From Vibrio vulnificus CMCP6 (GTDB taxonomy: Bacteria > Pseudomonadota > Gammaproteobacteria > Enterobacterales > Vibrionaceae), in assembly GCF_000039765.1 (NCBI RefSeq), contig NC_004460.2, positions 1,350,001 through 1,382,000 on the forward strand: a stretch of DNA of 32,000 bases. The letters run 5' to 3'. Made by a program: the position numbers and the translations under genes. The notes below the pieces were generated by a model. It was not told where the DNA came from. It ran no database searches and worked only from the letters and a program-made list of their open reading frames with translations. This document shows positions 7,147-14,063 of the stretch, one piece after another; position 1 is the stretch's first letter; each line of letters begins with the position of its first letter.

Positions 7147-8067
7147 TTATTTTGCGTTGGCTTCGGCAAACTTCTCTAAACCCAGCACCAAAGCAATGGC
7201 AACCAGCGCCATGACAATCGCCATCACCCATTGCGAAGGTTGCGAGGTCAGCGCTTCGAACTCAAACGGCGACAGGTTGTGTTGTACCAAGGGTACTTGC
7301 TCGCCGCTCGAGTTGACACGCCAGCTAATGGTCTCTTTCCAAGGCCAGATTTTCGGCAGTGTGCCGATCATCAATCCGGTTAAGAACATCAGCGTGAAAT
7401 CGCGGAACTTGCGCAGCAGCCATGACAACACGTGAGAGAACGTCAGCAGGCCTGTCACACAGCCCACTAAGAACAGCGCCAGAATGTCAACTTGAAAGCT
7501 TTTAACCGCGCCAAGAACCGGCGCGTACATGCCAATGAGCAGCAGAATAAAGCTGCCTGAAATACCCGGCAGAATCATCGCGCAAATCGCAATCGCCCCC
7601 GCAATCAAGACATTGATGGATGTGGGTTCTAAATGAAGTGGTTTAAGCACGGTAATGCTGTAGGCAAACGCGATGCCGAGAAACAACAGAGCGAAACGAG
7701 TGAGGTCTTTTTTCTCAACCTGTTTGAGGATGTGATAAACCGATACCAAGATGAGACCAAAGAAAAACGACCAAATTGGAATAGGGTGATTGGCCAAAAG
7801 CCAAGTGATCAGTTTGGCAAGCGTTGCGATACTGGTCAGTACGCCACCAAACAAAGCGATTAAGAAAAAGCCGTTAATGTGGTTAAACGCCGCCTTAAAG
7901 CCTTCTGCACGCCAGATTTTTATCACGCTAGGGTTAATGCGACGAATGCTTTCGAGCAAGGTGTCATAGATACCCGTAATAAACGCGATTGTGCCACCAG
8001 AGACACCTGGCACCACGTCGGCGGCGCCCATCGCTAAACCTTTTAAGAAAGTAAACAAATAATTCAT
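7147..8067 (-). CDS. DUF368 family membrane protein (undecaprenyl-phosphate translocase, PopT-like)
   Basis: Start placed at MNYLFTFLKGLAMG (ATG at 8067); the track's extension to 8166 is probably spurious. Polytopic membrane protein with the DUF368 signature VVPGVSGGTIAFITGIYD repeated in degenerate form as ILPGISGSFILLLIG. The family was recently linked to C55-P recycling, including in V. cholerae. Confidence 0.8.
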   Translation of the reverse strand: MNYLFTFLKGLAMGAADVVPGVSGGTIAFITGIYDTLLESIRRINPSVIKIWRAEGFKAAFNHINGFFLIALFGGVLTSIATLAKLITWLLANHPIPIWSFFFGLILVSVYHILKQVEKKDLTRFALLFLGIAFAYSITVLKPLHLEPTSINVLIAGAIAICAMILPGISGSFILLLIGMYAPVLGAVKSFQVDILALFLVGCVTGLLTFSHVLSWLLRKFRDFTLMFLTGLMIGTLPKIWPWKETISWRVNSSGEQVPLVQHNLSPFEFEALTSQPSQWVMAIVMALVAIALVLGLEKFAEANAK

Positions 8068-8234
8068 GTCGTTGAAATCGTAAAAAAGCAGTGCAGCGAG
8101 TATACCCAGATTCATGTCAAAAAAGTATGAAATTACGTGGACATAGCGCTCCTTGCCTTCGAACAATGGTCACGATTCTTATCTTTTAGATTCATCGTAT
8201 AAAAAGTAAGCGCAACTGTATTCACAATGGCTAT

Positions 8235-8272
8235 TTGCATAACCATTTGCAAAATGCTTTTGCATAATGCAA
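8235..8272 (+). promoter_or_regulatory. LuxO (bacterial enhancer-binding protein) sites upstream of qrr
   Basis: Exact match to the published LuxO consensus TTGCAW3TGCAA at 8260-8272 (ttgcataatgcaa). There is a second near-match ttgcaaaatgctt at 8247-8259 and an additional ttgca half-site at 8235-8239. Confidence 0.65.
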
Positions 8273-8333
8273 AAATTATTTTAGCAACAGTTAATATATG
8301 AGATATTCAGCCCAAAAATAGGGCTTTTAAAGT

Positions 8334-8349
8334 TGGCATGATTAATGCA
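8334..8349 (+). promoter_or_regulatory. Sigma-54 (-24/-12) promoter of qrr
   Basis: tggcatgattaatgca: GG at 8335-8336 and GC at 8347-8348 with canonical 12-nt register (TGGCAC-N5-TTGCW class). It lies about 12 nt upstream of the predicted Qrr 5' end. Confidence 0.8.
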
Positions 8350-8359
8350 TAATACTTCT

Positions 8360-8469
8360 CGACCCTTATTAAGCCGAGGGTCACCTAGCCAACTGACGTT
8401 GTTAGTGAATACACATTGTTCACATCATACATAAGCCAATCGCACTTATTTTGCGGTTGGTTTTTTTTT
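8360..8469 (+). ncRNA. qrr: Qrr quorum-regulatory sRNA (Hfq-dependent, LuxO/sigma-54 controlled)
   Basis: Contains the invariant Qrr core ggtcacctagccaactgacgttgttagtgaa (8380-8410). The 5' stem-loop is gaccct/agggtc (8361-8382). The terminal hairpin ccaatcgca/tgcggttgg (8436-8460) is followed by T9. The paralogue number (qrr2/3/4-like) cannot be assigned from sequence alone, and the 5' end is approximate to within a few nt. Confidence 0.92.
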
Positions 8470-8545
8470 GCTTGTGATTTGGGAGATGGCGCTCAAGCTT
8501 TTAAGACTCGTTTTAACCCAAAACACATCGCGCAGGTGTGGAAAG

Positions 8546-8577
8546 AAAAATCCGATAGCCTTGGCTATCGGATTTTT
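8546..8577. terminator. Bidirectional terminator between qrr and the convergent tandem-paralogue operon
   Basis: Stem tccgatag (8551-8558) / ctatcgga (8565-8572) flanked by A5 (8546-8550) and T5 (8573-8577). It lies 15 nt downstream of the stop of ORF 8592-9593. Confidence 0.75.
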
Positions 8578-8591
8578 ACCTTGCTACCCAA

Positions 8592-9593
8592 CTATTCGGC
8601 TAACACAGATTCAACGGTGAACTCGGGTGGGTTGGCCTTGAGCGCTTCAAAGCTTAGGCCTTCGCCTTTGATCAACCACATCGGCGCGTAGAGCGAATCG
8701 AAGCTTGGTGTTTCACCCGTTTGTTGGTAGTGCACCTTTAAAAATGCGGTGAGAATGTTGTGAAACAAGCAGCTACGGTCATTAAGGTGCAAACTCTCTT
8801 CTCCGGTTTTGCCGCCATTTTGTTCGGCAAAATAGGCATACCATTGATAGTTGGCCTCGATAGACGCTTCCACCGCTTGGTCTAGCGGTGTTACTTCAAA
8901 TCCCCAGCTAATCGCAATCAGGCTGTAGAGCGGAAAAATGAGGAACTCATAGTAATCCATCCAGTAAGGGTGGCCTTTTTCCGCAATTAACTCACTGGTG
9001 AGGTAGGGAACCACCGCTTGCAGCAGTGCGGCCTGTTGCTCCTTGTTTTGCTCACCAAACAAAAACGCCTTAAACAAGTGAAAGAAATCTTGTTCAATCG
9101 GACGAAAATCGGTGAGGTCTGTTTTCCGTGAGATTTCATGAGCGGGAACGGCGTAGAGCTGCGCTTTCGCCTGTGGATTATCGGCCAAAATCGCCATGCT
9201 TGCGCCATCCAACCAATGAACCAAGGAGTCGTAGCTGTTGTAATTGTGCTGTTTTTCTTCCGTGGTGACTTGCAAGCGCTGGGTAAAATAGTCCACCTCT
9301 ATGGTCTGGTTCGGCTGGCAGTGAATCGCCCAATGCATCTTAGCCAGCTCGGACGCCGAACCAATCAAATATTGAATCGCAGGTCGAGACCAATGCAAAA
9401 GAATTGCGCGCGCTATTCGATAGAAAATATGGCTGGAAGCAGCGTAGTTTTGGAGATAGGTTGAGTTTGATTTATACATCTCAAGCCCATCGTCATGAAA
9501 GTTGATGGATTTTATTTCACTCAAAGTATGATTTAAGCGATCGGTGCTCATATAATGTTCAGTTCTGTGATGAGGTTTTATCGATATGTTCAT
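8592..9593 (-). CDS. Hypothetical cytoplasmic helix-rich protein, tandem paralogue A (333 aa), family not recognised
   Basis: Long ORF preserved intact in two tandem copies. SD aagg lies 9 nt upstream of the ATG. No signal peptide or TM segment. Rich in W/H/Y and predicted helices. Terminator directly downstream. Confidence 0.8.
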   Translation of the reverse strand: MNISIKPHHRTEHYMSTDRLNHTLSEIKSINFHDDGLEMYKSNSTYLQNYAASSHIFYRIARAILLHWSRPAIQYLIGSASELAKMHWAIHCQPNQTIEVDYFTQRLQVTTEEKQHNYNSYDSLVHWLDGASMAILADNPQAKAQLYAVPAHEISRKTDLTDFRPIEQDFFHLFKAFLFGEQNKEQQAALLQAVVPYLTSELIAEKGHPYWMDYYEFLIFPLYSLIAISWGFEVTPLDQAVEASIEANYQWYAYFAEQNGGKTGEESLHLNDRSCLFHNILTAFLKVHYQQTGETPSFDSLYAPMWLIKGEGLSFEALKANPPEFTVESVLAE

Positions 9594-9647
9594 GATTTAG
9601 CCTTGCTTATAGTCAAAGAGATGAGTGCTGTTGCCCTTGCTACCCAA

Positions 9648-10655
9648 CTATTCGGCTAACACAGATTCAACGGTGAACTCGGGCGGGTTGGCCTTGAGCG
9701 CTTCAAAGCTTAGGCCTTCGCCTTTGATCAACCACATCGGCGCGTAGAGCGAATCGAAGCTTGGCGTTTTACCCGTTTGTTGGTAGTGCACCTTTAAAAA
9801 CGCGGTGAGAATGTTGTGAAACAAGCAGCTACGGTCATTAAGGTGCAAGCTCTCTTCTCCGGTTTTGCCGCCATTTTGTTCGGCAAAATAGGCATACCAT
9901 TGATAGTTGGCCTCGATAGACGCTTCCACCGCTTGGTCTAGCGGTGTTGCTTCAAATCCCCAGCTAATTGCAATCAGGCTGTAGAGAGGAAAAATAAGAA
10001 ACTCATAGTAATTCATCCAGTAAGGTTCGCCTTTTTCAGCTTCAGCAATTAACTCACTGGTGAGGTAGGGAACCACCGCTTGCAGCAGTGCGGCCTGTTG
10101 CTCCTTGTTTTGCTCACCAAACAAAAACGCCTTAAACAAGTGAAAGAAATCTTGTTCAATCGGACGAAAATCGGTGAGGTCTGTTTTCCGTGAGATTTCA
10201 TGAGCGGGAACGGCGTTGAGCTGCGTTTTCGCCTGTGGGTTATCGGCCAAAATCGCCATGCTTGCGCCATCCAACCAATGAACCAAAGAGTCGTAGCTGT
10301 TGTAATCGTGCTGCTTTTCTACTGTGGTGACTTGCAAGCGCTGGGTAAAATAGTCCACCTCTATGGTCTGGTTCGGCTGGCAGTGAATCGCCCAATGCAT
10401 CTTAGCCAGCTCGGACGCCGAACCAATCAAATATTGAATCGCGTGCCGAGACCAATGCAAAAGAATTGCACGCGCAATTGCGCAATAAGATGTGACAGAT
10501 GGTGCGTAATTCTGTATGTAAGTTGAGTTGGAAGAACGCTCAGATAGTTTTCCAGCATAGAACGCAATGTTCTCAGTTTCCAAAAGAGTATAACTAATTC
10601 GATTTTCACCCATGTACAGCGAAAATTTATGGTGCGGTTTGATTGATGTATTCAT
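9648..10655 (-). CDS. Hypothetical cytoplasmic helix-rich protein, tandem paralogue B (335 aa), family not recognised
   Basis: Paralogue of 8592-9593. The C-terminal ~275 aa are almost identical and the N-terminal ~60 aa diverged. A 2-aa insertion (AE) arises from a ttcagc duplication. No clear SD. Only 54 nt separate it from copy A, so the two are probably co-transcribed. Confidence 0.8.
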   Translation of the reverse strand: MNTSIKPHHKFSLYMGENRISYTLLETENIAFYAGKLSERSSNSTYIQNYAPSVTSYCAIARAILLHWSRHAIQYLIGSASELAKMHWAIHCQPNQTIEVDYFTQRLQVTTVEKQHDYNSYDSLVHWLDGASMAILADNPQAKTQLNAVPAHEISRKTDLTDFRPIEQDFFHLFKAFLFGEQNKEQQAALLQAVVPYLTSELIAEAEKGEPYWMNYYEFLIFPLYSLIAISWGFEATPLDQAVEASIEANYQWYAYFAEQNGGKTGEESLHLNDRSCLFHNILTAFLKVHYQQTGKTPSFDSLYAPMWLIKGEGLSFEALKANPPEFTVESVLAE

Positions 10656-10912
10656 GATTTAGTTTTTCGGATACCTATTCTATGTCGCTTTGCTGTTTTA
10701 TTCCATAAATGAGAATGAAACTCATTAGTTTTAAATGATAATCAAACCGAGTCGAATTCGCCTAAATAATTTATCTAAGTGTGATTTTGATGTGATTTTT
10801 TATAAATTTAGCTAGATAGTAAACAATATCAATCGGTTATATTCAATTTTGTTGGGGATTCGATGGCTCGATAAACAGAGTTGAACGTTCGTAACGGATT
10901 TGACTGACGAAA

Positions 10913-10942
10913 GAAAAAAGCCGATCGATTGATCGGCTTTTG
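10913..10942 (-). terminator. Rho-independent terminator of malT
   Basis: Stem agccgatc (10919-10926) / gatcggct (10931-10938). The A-run at 10914-10918 gives a U-run on the minus strand. Confidence 0.8.
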
Positions 10943-10975
10943 AATGTTGCACTTATTATCTGAAATCGGGAGTAT

Positions 10976-13684
10976 TTAATACCCCATTAACTGCAAGAGG
11001 TTCTCTGCGGTGGTGACCGCTTCTTTACGGTTGGCTATATTGAGTTTTTGATACAAGTTGCGGATGTGGGTTTTGATGGTGGTGCCCGCCACATCGAGCT
11101 CTTGGGCGATTTGCTCGTTACTAAAGCCAGAATAGATCAAGCCCAGTACTTGCCACTCTCTTTGTGTCAGTGGGCTGGTGCGCACTAACTCAGGCACATT
11201 CGGGTGGGTGACCAGTTTCTCGACAAATTCTTCGTCAAAGTGAACCGAACGGCTGCGCTGATTAGAAGAGATATCTTTCATCAATTGCAGCGCGCGGTGG
11301 CGTTCTAAGTCACCCAGCTCATGGCGGTTGGTGAGTTTTTCCAACAAGGTGCCAATGGTCGCGCCATCAATTAAGAAATTGCCGACCATACCGGTTTGGT
11401 TAGTGAGCTGCAGTGCTTCCTTAAGCAGCACTTTGGCTTGATTTTCATCTTTCTGATGAACAGCAAAAATTGCCTCAATGATCAGGTTACGGTTGCGATC
11501 GGTGACTAAATTCGCTTTCTCAGCCTCACTTTGTAAGAAATTCAAGGCTTGGCGCGCTTGGTCGTATTGACCAAGGTTGATGTGAGCACGAGCGATATTG
11601 CGCCACTGTAATTGGCAGAAGTGGTTACAGGCATTTTCAGGACGCACAGCCGTGTCTAACCACTCTTGAATCGCGTTGAGTTTGCCTTTCGCTTGCCAGT
11701 ATAGGATCAGTGAAAGTGAAGCATTGGCGGTCCAATCCACGTGGTAGGTAGACTGCTTCATCAAATGTTGAATGTGTTCGATGAACTTGCCTGCGCGATC
11801 GAGCTCGCCACGGCCAATCGCAATGCGAGCCAGCATCGAATAACTGTGCAAGTGTTTGCTTGGCGCGTGATTTTCCAGAATTTGCAGCCCTTTGTAAGCG
11901 CACTCTTCGGCTTCGTCCAAACGGTTCCAACACCACAACACTTGCGCTCGTACGCGCAGTAAGAATTCATGCAAAGGCACATGTTGAAGCTGCTGCTCCT
12001 CAATCAGACGGAAGGCGGAGTCTTGCAGCTCGAACGCGGCTTGCACATAGCCTTGCGCAATGAGGATTTCGCTTTGCTGCAAAATTGCCCACAGCGCTTG
12101 GTGGTAAACCTGGTACTGGCGCGCCAGCTTTTCGGTTTGCTGCATCATGGGCAGAGCGCGATCAAGGCGGCCAATCACGTGGTTCACTTCCCCTACGACT
12201 GAAGTAGCGACGATGCGGCTGCGGTAAACCGTGCTATCCAGCTGGCTTAATGCCAGTTCAGCCAGCTCGAGGGCTTTTTCTGGATCGTTGCTGTTGATCG
12301 CTACCTGCGCCAGCAAGGCATTCGCTTGGCCTTGGTATTGGATATCAAGATCAATATTGCGCTTTTTGTGCTCATTTTCTGCTTCCGCCAGTAAGGTGCC
12401 CACTTGGTTGTAGCGGTGCTGACTTTGTGCAAGCCAAGCGCGGAGCATGGTCAGTTTTGGGTTGCTGAACAGCAGATCTTTTTCCAGCAGATTGATGGCG
12501 GATTCCAGAGTAGATAGCTCACCTTGGTTGAACATTTTCCAACCAAACTCGTTGAGGATCTCCGCCACCAGTTCTCCGTCATACGCTTTTTGGGCGTGAC
12601 GAATCGCTTGATGCGGGGATTTTTGTTTCAACCACGCAATGGCGGCATTGCGGTTCAGCTCCTGCTCCTGCTGTGGAATACGCGCTTGACGCTCGTGCGA
12701 CAAAAACTCGCCAAACAAGTTGTGGAAGCGGAACCAGTTTTGCTCCCCCTCAAGCGGGTAGATGAATAAGCCGTAGCGGTTGAGAGATTCAATCATCCCC
12801 AATGCATCTTCACGCTGAGTGAGAGCGTAGACCAGCTCATCGTTAAAGTGATCGAGCACTGACACCTGCATCAAGAATTTGCGTGTATCGGCATCGAGCA
12901 AGTCAAACACCTCTTCCACCAAATAATCCCAGAGATGAGCATGATTAAACTGGGAAACCGATTCGGCCGATTGCGCTAAGGTGCGTTTTTGATGCTGTGC
13001 TTGAAGGGCGATCAGTTGCAATGCCGATGGCCAGCCTTCCACATAGTTACGCAGATTGTTGGCAGTATCTTCATCGATACCATCGGCGACGCGCTGGTTG
13101 AAAAATCGTGTGGTCTCTTCGGTGTCGAAGGCCAACATCTCGTTGCCAATCTCAATCATCAGATCGCGCACACGCAAGTTGGCCGTGCCCAGAGGTGGGT
13201 TGGCACGGCTGGTGACCACAAGGGTGAGGTTGTCTGGCATGTGTTTTAGGAAGAAACGCATCGCTTCGTGCACTTCTTCGTTGTTGATCACGTGGTAGTC
13301 ATCCAGTACCACATAGCACTCTTGATGAAAGTCGACCATCTCAGCGAACACATCGCTAAACAGCGAGCGCAGGGAGGAAAACTGGCGTTTTTCTGCTAAT
13401 TTTTGTGCATTGTTGCAGTTGCCATTAGTCGCTTTATTGAGTGCTTGCAGCAGGTAGTTAATGAAGCGGAAACCGTCGTTATCACTGTCATCGATGCTGT
13501 ACCAACCCACGTTGGTTTTGTCTGCCAACCATTGCGCAGCCATGGTGGTTTTTCCGTAGCCAGCGGGAGAGCGGAACAGCACCAACTTATAGTAAGGGGC
13601 TTGTTGCAGCAGCTCTAACACTCTCGGGCGGACAATCGCATTATGCAGTCGGCCTGGGCGTGTGAGTTTTGAAGGAATCCACAT
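10976..13684 (-). CDS. malT: Maltose regulon transcriptional activator MalT (STAND ATPase with LuxR-type HTH)
   Basis: 902-aa ORF collinear with E. coli MalT as recalled: IPSKL.RP, Walker [10 protein letters not shown], and a near-identical C-terminal HTH ([45 protein letters not shown]). Divergent from malPQ as in E. coli. Confidence 0.96.
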
Positions 13685-13960
13685 TCTAATACTTCCTTTT
13701 TATATTGGGTTTTTCATGGCAGAAAAACCGGATGTAGCCAGCGAACAAAAATTAGACAAAATGCTCGAATTGCTGGGCATGTTACGTTAAAGAAATCACC
13801 TCAGACTTTGATCCACTTCCTAATTCTTAAGAGTTGATGGTTTTGACGCCAACTACGCCCCAATTTTGTGAATTTGATCTATAAATTCTCCATCTGAATC
13901 GTTAAGTAAGAATGGCCTTGCGCAATATTTTGCAACATTTTTCATAAACCAAAACTTTAT

Positions 13961-13976
13961 TGTGATCAAATTTACA
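13961..13976. promoter_or_regulatory. CRP-like site in the malT upstream region
   Basis: tgtgatcaaatttaca compared with consensus TGTGA-N6-TCACA (9 of 10 in the half-sites). A weaker site tgtgaatttgatctat lies at 13867-13882. E. coli malT is CRP-activated. Confidence 0.35.
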
Positions 13977-14047
13977 AAAATGGATTTTCTAAAATCGCTC
14001 TTCAACCTGGGCGTCATATTTGCCATCTAGAGTTATTAGTTGATGGC

Positions 14048-14063
14048 TGTGATCTCAATCACT
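14048..14063. promoter_or_regulatory. CRP-like site upstream of malP
   Basis: tgtgatctcaatcact compared with TGTGA-N6-TCACA (9 of 10). Confidence 0.4.

Follow-up and report, generated by a model that had tools for sequence, protein, structure and literature searches.

We find that two neighbouring genes in a stretch of 32,000 nucleotides from Vibrio vulnificus CMCP6 (NC_004460.2, positions 1,350,001 to 1,382,000; hereafter the window), lying between malT and the gene of a Qrr small RNA (sRNA), are allelic to immunity genes that stand directly downstream of a large toxin gene at the same site in other strains. We consider it likely that malT and Qrr on V. vulnificus chromosome II border a polymorphic toxin-immunity locus and that the window represents its immunity-only haplotype, with which the strain would resist two toxin variants of its own species. 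Systems of this kind, namely orphan immunity genes at a polymorphic-toxin locus, are already known, and a literature search found no description of this one in V. vulnificus. The initial annotation of the window, made from the sequence alone, had placed the gene pair between qrr and malT, a position confirmed by matches to Rfam RF00378 and to Pfam TPR_MalT and GerE, and had guessed at orphan Imm-type immunity genes of a polymorphic-toxin system, which is borne out by homology to Imm49 and by allelism with the toxin-linked genes. The features of the pair are as follows (loci of other genomes are cited by L numbers, and related proteins by P numbers).

8592-9593, minus strand: c2 (the 'A-type', Qrr-proximal immunity gene), an intact open reading frame (ORF) of 333 aa
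9648-10655, minus strand: c1 (the 'B-type', malT-proximal immunity gene), an intact ORF of 335 aa
9414-9593, minus strand: putative N-terminal specificity cassette of c2, codons 1-60, with 47% nucleotide identity to the c1 segment
10476-10655, minus strand: putative N-terminal specificity cassette of c1, codons 1-60, with 47% nucleotide identity to the c2 segment
9597-9635, minus strand: toxin-gene 3'-end remnant directly upstream of c2, reading GNSTHLFDYKQG plus a stop codon
9635-9647, minus strand: 3' flank of c1, 13 nt, with TTGGGTAGCAAGG as its coding-strand sequence; each immunity gene is followed by this flank
8579-8591, minus strand: 3' flank of c2, the same 13 nt, also found after the single immunity gene of the toxin-bearing locus L031

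As first described, the two ORFs are intact and paralogous, and their products share the C-terminal end ...PPEFTVESVLAE. The two units were also said to align base for base, and this holds for the 3' ~830 nt, over which c1 and c2 are ~97% identical with one 6-nt indel (a repeat finder returned direct repeats of 98% identity between 8579-8878 and 9635-9934, and of 97% identity between 8979-9278 and 10041-10340), but fails for the 5' ~170 nt, encoding the N-terminal ~58 aa, where identity is just ~47%. The same partition is seen in the divergence of the two copies (Nei-Gojobori method): across codons 10-59 the proportions of synonymous and non-synonymous differences (pS and pN) are 0.86, which is saturated, and 0.44, whereas the remainder of the gene has a synonymous divergence (dS) of 0.106 and a non-synonymous divergence (dN) of 0.0155, a ratio of ~0.15. 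Because a saturated N-terminal pS stands beside so low a dS in the core, we rule out that the pair arose by recent duplication.

Toxin alleles at the same site in other strains

The toxin haplotype was reached by anchoring on the conserved neighbouring PCuAC gene, followed by an exact-sequence cluster look-up, and 18 toxin-bearing loci (L031 and L039-L055), representing five independent toxin sequences, were compared. In L039-L055 the gene order is malT, a two-partner secretion (TPS) ORF of 845-853 aa, the toxin of 1352 aa, one immunity gene, Qrr and a VCA0040-like gene, with gaps of 11 nt between the TPS ORF and the toxin and of 2-4 nt between the toxin and the immunity gene. The Qrr-proximal side of L031 likewise presents a TPS ORF, a 1352-aa DUF637 ORF and a 333-aa immunity gene, and its 3' flank, hairpin and Qrr match those of the window. 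The 90%-identity cluster of the toxin contains 38 member sequences from many V. vulnificus assemblies, and the protein is 51% identical over its full length to a toxin of V. penaeicida. A tblastn search of the 32-kb window with the toxin sequences gave no match, in agreement with the initial statement that it lacks a toxin gene; no toxin ORF adjoins either immunity gene there, and toxins of classes b and c (see below) are present in other strains. Similarly, no toxin lies within 6-8 kb of the immunity pairs of loci L001-L016. Copy number in the qrr-malT interval, which the initial annotation had proposed to compare across Vibrio genomes, indeed varies, the alternatives being an immunity pair, or a toxin with a single immunity gene.

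Toxin variants diverge almost solely at residues 1282-1347. The five toxin classes are 98-99.5% identical over the first ~3.9 kb of the toxin gene, drop to 48-78% identity in the stretch that runs from some 160 nt before to some 200 nt after the toxin stop codon, and return to 94-100% identity over the rest of the immunity gene past the cassette, such that the toxin tip (last ~55 codons) and the immunity N-terminus (first ~60) form one contiguous hypervariable block of ~360 nt. Five classes of toxin tip pair one-to-one with five classes of immunity N-terminus, in 18 of 18 loci:

Toxin tip a: immunity N-terminal type 5
Toxin tip b: immunity N-terminal B-type
Toxin tip c: immunity N-terminal A-type
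Toxin tip d: immunity N-terminal type 4
Toxin tip e: immunity N-terminal type 3

The pairing of tip b with the B-type is present in all eight of the eight assemblies L039-L046. Both genes of the window have a counterpart in this series. Over its first 180 nt, c1 agrees at 100% with the b-linked immunity gene (L039-L046), the core being 97.6% identical; over the same length c2 agrees at 100% with the c-linked immunity gene (L047), with a core identity of 99.3%. We predict from these matches that c1 is specific for toxin tip class b, and c2 for class c. A diversity-generating retroelement or hypermutation was considered as the origin of the variation and rejected, given that the variants are few, discrete, stable and common to strains and species, and that no reverse transcriptase is encoded nearby.

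The DNA between the two copies retains a trace of the toxin. On the coding strand, the 54-nt spacer consists of TTGGGTAGCAAGG, then GCAACAGCACTCATCTCTTTGACTATAAGCAAGGCTAA, and then ATC before the ATG of c2; GCAACAGCACTCATCTCTTTGACTATAAGCAAGGCTAA plus the preceding G translates as GNSTHLFDYKQG, and the toxins of other strains end in ...INI[FIVS]DYKQG, the end of the remnant being ...FDYKQG*. The class c toxin/immunity junction is matched without a difference by the last 21 nt of the remnant, by the TAAATC spacing and by the start of c2, and GACTATAAGCAAGGCTAAATCATGAACATA recurs unchanged in L047, where the tip-c toxin ends and the immunity gene starts. The 34 nt that had been described as a unique spacer belong, on this comparison, to a 38-nt 3' remnant of a toxin gene known from other strains, placed before its predicted cognate immunity gene. 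The heptamer CCTTGCT does occur at every junction (8579, 9601 and 9635), as originally noted, but it is not rare, with 10 copies in the window against 5.0 expected. It is the reverse complement of AGCAAGG, which is located in the terminal Lys-Gln-Gly codons of the toxin and in the 13-nt 3' flank of each immunity gene, and it recurs because it belongs to both of these. A microhomology-mediated duplication, proposed on the strength of this heptamer, is accordingly abandoned, the heptamer being native to the toxin end and the immunity flank and the junction containing toxin-derived sequence.

Protein families of the immunity genes and of the partner toxin

Both window proteins match Pfam Imm49 (PF15575), with 20.9 bits (E 2.9e-4) for c2 and 19.6 bits (E 7.5e-4) for c1, under the gathering threshold of 30.1 bits, and the matches span residues 107-307 and profile positions 36-217 of 217. 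No matches were obtained in NCBIfam, PADLOC (none at E<=10) or PDB sequence searches. Imm49 is also matched by 12 of 13 close homologues (best E 7.9e-5), and the family can no longer be called unknown, as it had been. A word-indexed search yielded 62 clusters, all from V. vulnificus or V. navarrensis and every one at least 79% identical, some of which NCBI already names 'immunity 49 family protein', and an exhaustive HMMER scan of 1.84 billion representative proteins yielded just 24 clusters (at 50% identity), in which distant relatives are 20-41% identical to the window proteins (E 1e-72 to 1e-6). Several of these relatives exceed the Imm49 threshold, namely P0063 (profile-search E 1.4e-72; 38.6 bits to Imm49), P0064 (6e-69; 34.5 bits), P0070 (8e-28; 53.1 bits) and P0074 (4e-23; 73.8 bits), and 22 of 23 aligned family members match Imm49 (best E 6e-29). 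Because they are homologous to proteins that do exceed the cut-off, the products of c1 and c2 are divergent Imm49 immunity proteins, a membership assigned by transitive homology and not by the curated threshold.

An AlphaFold2 (AF2) model of the c2 protein, built from a deeper alignment, reached a pLDDT of 88.8 and a pTM of 0.91, and is mostly alpha-helical with one beta-hairpin; a model from a shallow alignment (pLDDT 46) was discarded. No similar fold was found among solved structures. The Pfam, PDB and AlphaFold checks recommended in the initial annotation were productive in part, returning Imm49 below its cut-off and a confident model, but neither a PDB match nor a comparable solved fold. 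Imm49, formerly DUF556, was described by Zhang et al. 2012 as an all-alpha family and as the immunity partner of Tox-REase-1 and Tox-REase-6 (PMC3482391). The window proteins share with it an all-alpha fold and allelic genes directly downstream of a polymorphic toxin, whereas they add a ~100-aa N-terminal region outside the Pfam domain, the hypervariable cassette included, and form a very small, Vibrionaceae-restricted subfamily (the 24 clusters mentioned above).

On the toxin side, an alignment of 11 toxin C-termini (CTs) contains the invariant pattern F-D...I-x-E-A-K-G...Q-G...Y...Y-K-V-V-x-Q, with D98, E113-A-K115, Q136, Y141 and Y176 as invariant positions. This motif agrees with the Tox-REase-6 signature 'E, D, ExK, Q, Y', of which the partner toxin CT has D, ExK, Q and Y, and for Tox-REase-6 toxins Imm49 is the listed immunity partner and type V secretion (T5SS) a listed type of delivery (PMC3482391). 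The C-terminal ~120 aa of the toxin would, by this motif, be a PD-(D/E)xK nuclease of Tox-REase-6-like type. The toxin system carries TPS, DUF637 and weak filamentous-haemagglutinin (FHA) repeats, and the TPS protein and the DUF637/toxin protein, which in L039 lie within 7446-14059, are separate ORFs, each with its own ribosome-binding site and Sec-type signal peptide. The same split between TPS and toxin ORFs is seen in V. penaeicida (L019) and V. ostreicida (L022). No VENN-like motif ([VIL][EDS]NN) occurs in the toxin proteins, and no TpsB/CdiB gene was found within 10 kb on either side in L039-L046, where each ORF of 350 aa or more could be accounted for. Judged by its domains, the toxin system is related to the TPS/filamentous-haemagglutinin type but is not a canonical CdiBAI system. 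A link to type VI secretion (T6SS), suggested initially, finds no counterpart in a partner toxin of this type, which comes with no VgrG, PAAR or Rhs.

Interpretation and rival explanations

We propose that toxin-bearing strains encode a secreted TPS protein, an FHA/DUF637 protein tipped with a nuclease, and an Imm49 immunity protein that would bind the nuclease domain and block it. Specificity may be set by a small interface, made up of roughly 55 C-terminal toxin residues and 60 N-terminal residues of the immunity protein (helices 1-3), and the conserved toxin and immunity sequences could act as homology arms by which cassettes are swapped through recombination. The window strain would have lost, or never had, the toxin genes and kept c1 (class b) and c2 (class c). 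Because the cassettes of the window are identical to b- and c-linked ones, resistance to class b and c toxins is predicted, such that the strain would be protected in competition against two of the five conspecific toxin variants, and would make no toxin from this locus. A more ambitious reading, which we advance tentatively and consider rather less than evenly probable, is that of a species-wide kin-discrimination polymorphism under frequency-dependent selection, comprising at least five toxin specificities together with 'double-immune' haplotypes, swaps of ~360-nt cassettes that reprogram both partners, crossing to V. navarrensis, and an atypical, bipartite TPS-like delivery with no TpsB beside it.

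Several points weigh against the immunity-only interpretation. Both window proteins score below the Pfam gathering score for Imm49, the toxin CT is without a match in Pfam, NCBIfam or PDB, leaving the nuclease call to the motif, and the sole Imm49 neutralisation assay that we found in the literature belongs to a retracted paper (PMC6156420). One-to-one linkage is to be expected of neighbouring DNA whatever its function, and does not by itself prove a functional interface; moreover, the 18 paired loci amount to only five independent toxin sequences. Split ORFs and the lack of VENN and of a nearby TpsB make contact-dependent delivery into kin cells a supposition. Finally, absence of the toxin is established for the 32-kb window of the source genome, and alleles are damaged in some strains, indicating that selection is not universal.

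Such damage (truncated, deleted, frameshifted and read-through alleles) is what would be expected if the toxin had been lost and both immunity genes were functionless relics drifting towards pseudogenes. We regard this as unlikely for the window, where both ORFs are intact and the core dN/dS is ~0.15; furthermore, the intact two-copy layout occurs in many divergent assemblies, the cassettes are 100% identical to toxin-linked ones, and toxin-producing conspecifics are common, so that immunity should have value. Ordinary self-immunity, in which matching toxins are encoded elsewhere in the genome of the strain and the genes are not orphans at all, appears less probable again: polymorphic toxin genes can be scattered, and our view covers 32 kb of the genome, yet the toxin occupies this very site, directly upstream of the immunity gene, in 18 of 18 toxin-bearing loci, the window has merely the 38-nt remnant there, and the pair haplotypes L001-L016 are also toxin-free over the distance given above.

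In the model taken from the initial annotation, a tandem duplication arose recently by microhomology and selection then rapidly diversified the N-terminus, and both the ~97% identity of the cores and the heptamer at the junctions would fit such an event. However, N-terminal synonymous sites are saturated against a core dS of 0.11, the same cassettes are found, 100% identical, beside toxins in other strains, the junction and copy order are common to divergent strains with cores clustering by position, and the spacer is a toxin remnant and not a duplication scar, all of which makes this explanation highly improbable; the N-terminal segments are instead pre-existing alleles. We give equally little credence to another cellular role, be it anti-phage defence (a suggestion of the initial annotation) or regulation of malT or Qrr, with no more than a resemblance to Imm49. 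The unusual place beside a quorum-sensing sRNA and a direct Pfam score under the cut-off speak for such a role, whereas PADLOC and NCBIfam returned no matches, homology to Imm49 proteins exceeding the cut-off is strong (E 1e-72), and allelic genes lying 2-4 nt past a toxin, likewise in other species, are a hallmark of immunity genes.

If the window is indeed an immunity-only haplotype, one parallel to its variation may be sought among the colicins. Colicins E2, E7, E8 and E9, with Im2, Im7, Im8 and Im9, possess a hypervariable 'immunity region' that spans the immunity-binding end of the toxin and the adjoining immunity gene; the catalytic core is conserved, synonymous and non-synonymous divergence are concentrated in that region, and several discrete specificity classes exist. 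The V. vulnificus locus resembles them in its toxin core and immunity scaffold, conserved at 97-100% identity between strains, with divergence in a contiguous block, but the families are unrelated (HNH DNase and four-helix Im, as opposed to PD-ExK and a 333-aa Imm49), the locus is chromosomal and not plasmid-borne, and the variable part is the first ~60 of 333 immunity residues. Orphan cdiA-CT/cdiI and immunity arrays of contact-dependent inhibition (CDI), Rhs and T6SS systems, for example in V. cholerae (PMC9086364, PMC8632748), share with the window immunity genes that are arranged in tandem and lack a full toxin, a remaining 3' piece of a truncated toxin ahead of an immunity gene, a toxin that is present or absent by strain at a fixed site, and a predicted defence against kin toxins. 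Here, however, 38 nt of the toxin are left and not a CT-domain fragment, and it is a ~360-nt sub-domain cassette that varies, in place of the whole CT and the whole immunity gene. Canonical CDI differs further, in that the present toxin is split in two ORFs, without VENN and without an adjacent CdiB/TpsB. Immunity islets, such as the acquired interbacterial defence (AID) system of Bacteroidales and an islet of Salmonella Typhi (PMC7400221), also keep immunity genes toxin-free, with predicted protection from the toxins of neighbours, and a sign of horizontal exchange is common to both (here the identity of the V. navarrensis core as against that of malT, detailed below). Unlike these islets, the window has two genes of one family and no integrase or mobile-element scaffold, and its genes would be aimed at conspecific alleles of one toxin and not at many toxin families.

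The population structure of V. vulnificus, a lethal pathogen that is expanding with the climate, is poorly explained, and toxin-plus and immunity-only haplotypes would be a concrete determinant of strain-versus-strain competition, one that could matter in oysters. Five matched pairs of toxin tip and immunity cassette on otherwise identical scaffolds also provide a clean natural specificity series, which suits chimera and structural work and points at the specificity interface. For Imm49 and Tox-REase-6 there is no solved structure, and no non-retracted functional study was found in the literature. For annotation more generally, the lesson is that an apparent 'recent duplication with fast-evolving ends' was two old cassette alleles on a homogenised core.

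Haplotypes, relatives and flanking features

Divergent V. vulnificus strains have the 54-nt junction and the order of the two copies in common. Strict concerted evolution of the copies was mostly rejected, as cores group according to position (identity is 98.8-98.9% among c1 orthologues and 99.5-99.8% among c2 orthologues, compared with ~97% for c1 versus c2), with an exception in L015/L016, where the c1 core seems to have been converted towards c2. The distribution of N-terminal cassettes is independent of core, AE indel and copy position, and 48 protein clusters with a complete N-terminus include 12 distinct N-terminal sequences of visibly mosaic make-up. In V. navarrensis, the single copy combines a c1-like core with a cassette sharing 99% identity with that of c2 in V. 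vulnificus L015. When the two species are compared (window 9648-10655 versus L014:6001-7008), identity is 97.6% for the immunity core (98-100% per 100-nt bin) but 80.8% for malT; because the immunity core is so much closer than the adjacent malT, this comparison indicates that the immunity gene has recently passed from one species to the other, or has swept into the syntenic site.

At least four haplotypes exist in V. vulnificus, namely an immunity pair, or a toxin with an immunity gene, each with or without an island of ~12 kb. In some V. vulnificus strains and in V. navarrensis this cyclo/maltodextrin utilisation island separates the immunity gene from Qrr (L056:11092-21002, L050:9159-12059, L014:7099-12989 and L029-L038:1-6436), and encodes a CBM20 amylase, MalK, CymA, a substrate-binding protein, two permeases, an amylase, a ROK protein and TrmB. 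Because the island inserts there too, the malT-Qrr interval can be called a multi-allelic hotspot. In L041 (21143-22468) an IS4-family transposase is inserted beside an SDF symporter gene, a few kb from the toxin locus.

The damaged immunity alleles comprise a truncated c1 in L002 (231 aa), an internally deleted c2 in L012, a frameshift in P0057, a 15-aa deletion in P0049/50 and stop-codon read-through variants (P0036, P0039 and P0048). Some c1 alleles run through their own stop into the toxin remnant and end at the old toxin stop codon. These alleles suggest relaxed selection on immunity in some lineages. An altered allele is also present at L056:8987-9997.

Other Vibrionaceae encode Imm49 relatives at ten loci. 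In two of these, L019 of V. penaeicida and L022 of V. ostreicida, the immunity gene lies 4-7 nt past an ORF of 1373 or 1316 aa that has filamentous-haemagglutinin repeats or DUF637 and a TPS-domain ORF upstream, and the C-termini of these large ORFs contain FDQ[IV]Y...ILEAKG, a PD-(D/E)xK motif. A word search with these two CTs had missed V. vulnificus, and the species-level orphan status which that implied was rejected, the toxin being later found at the locus. Vibrio sp. S9_S30 (L018:5142-11014) has no full toxin, and carries an orphan array where V. penaeicida has the full toxin; in this array two toxin-CT fragments of 112 aa stand displaced, with 99% and 87.5% identity to the CT of V. penaeicida, and an Imm49 gene comes after each (one a pseudogene), two more divergent Imm49 paralogues lying between. 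In Veronia pacifica (L017:10007-13257) an independent tandem Imm49 pair has 94% aa identity, 9 of the 21 differences falling at aa 12-29 and a further cluster at aa 155-162, and in the second copy the stop codon is lost, extending the reading frame to 650 aa. Enterovibrio norvegicus possesses Imm49 paralogues of 293 and 343 aa that overlap by 4 nt, an operon-like pair found at two places in one genome (L023:8937-10846 and L026:8892-11347) with no toxin near. The remaining relatives are solitary orphans.

The borders of the variable locus in the window, and the non-coding DNA on either side of the immunity genes, are as follows.

8360-8470, plus strand: Qrr sRNA gene, the right-hand border of the variable locus (Rfam RF00378 at 108.6 bits, the gathering score being 50)
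8546-8577: perfect 15-nt inverted repeat with flanking A/T runs, arms 100% complementary, conserved in L031
10656-10975, minus strand: AT-rich intergenic region of the toxin-less haplotype, 320 nt, GC 0.335-0.37
10976-13684, minus strand: malT, the left-hand border of the variable locus (Pfam TPR_MalT and GerE)

The remaining genes of the window are core metabolism, as the initial annotation had it. The Qrr gene is convergent with the immunity genes, and between them lies only the inverted repeat, which is probably a bidirectional terminator. Within 10656-10975 are the malT terminator (10916-10941) and presumably the immunity promoter; a promoter-like site is located at 10832-10805, upstream of c1, and a promoter scan of the region gave a signal no higher than the shuffled expectation. 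Upstream of c1, only CTAAATC before the ATG recalls the toxin-immunity junction. The intergenic DNA of the window and that of the toxin haplotype are unrelated from the first base past the malT stop, and the window region is homologous to the intergenic region of V. navarrensis.

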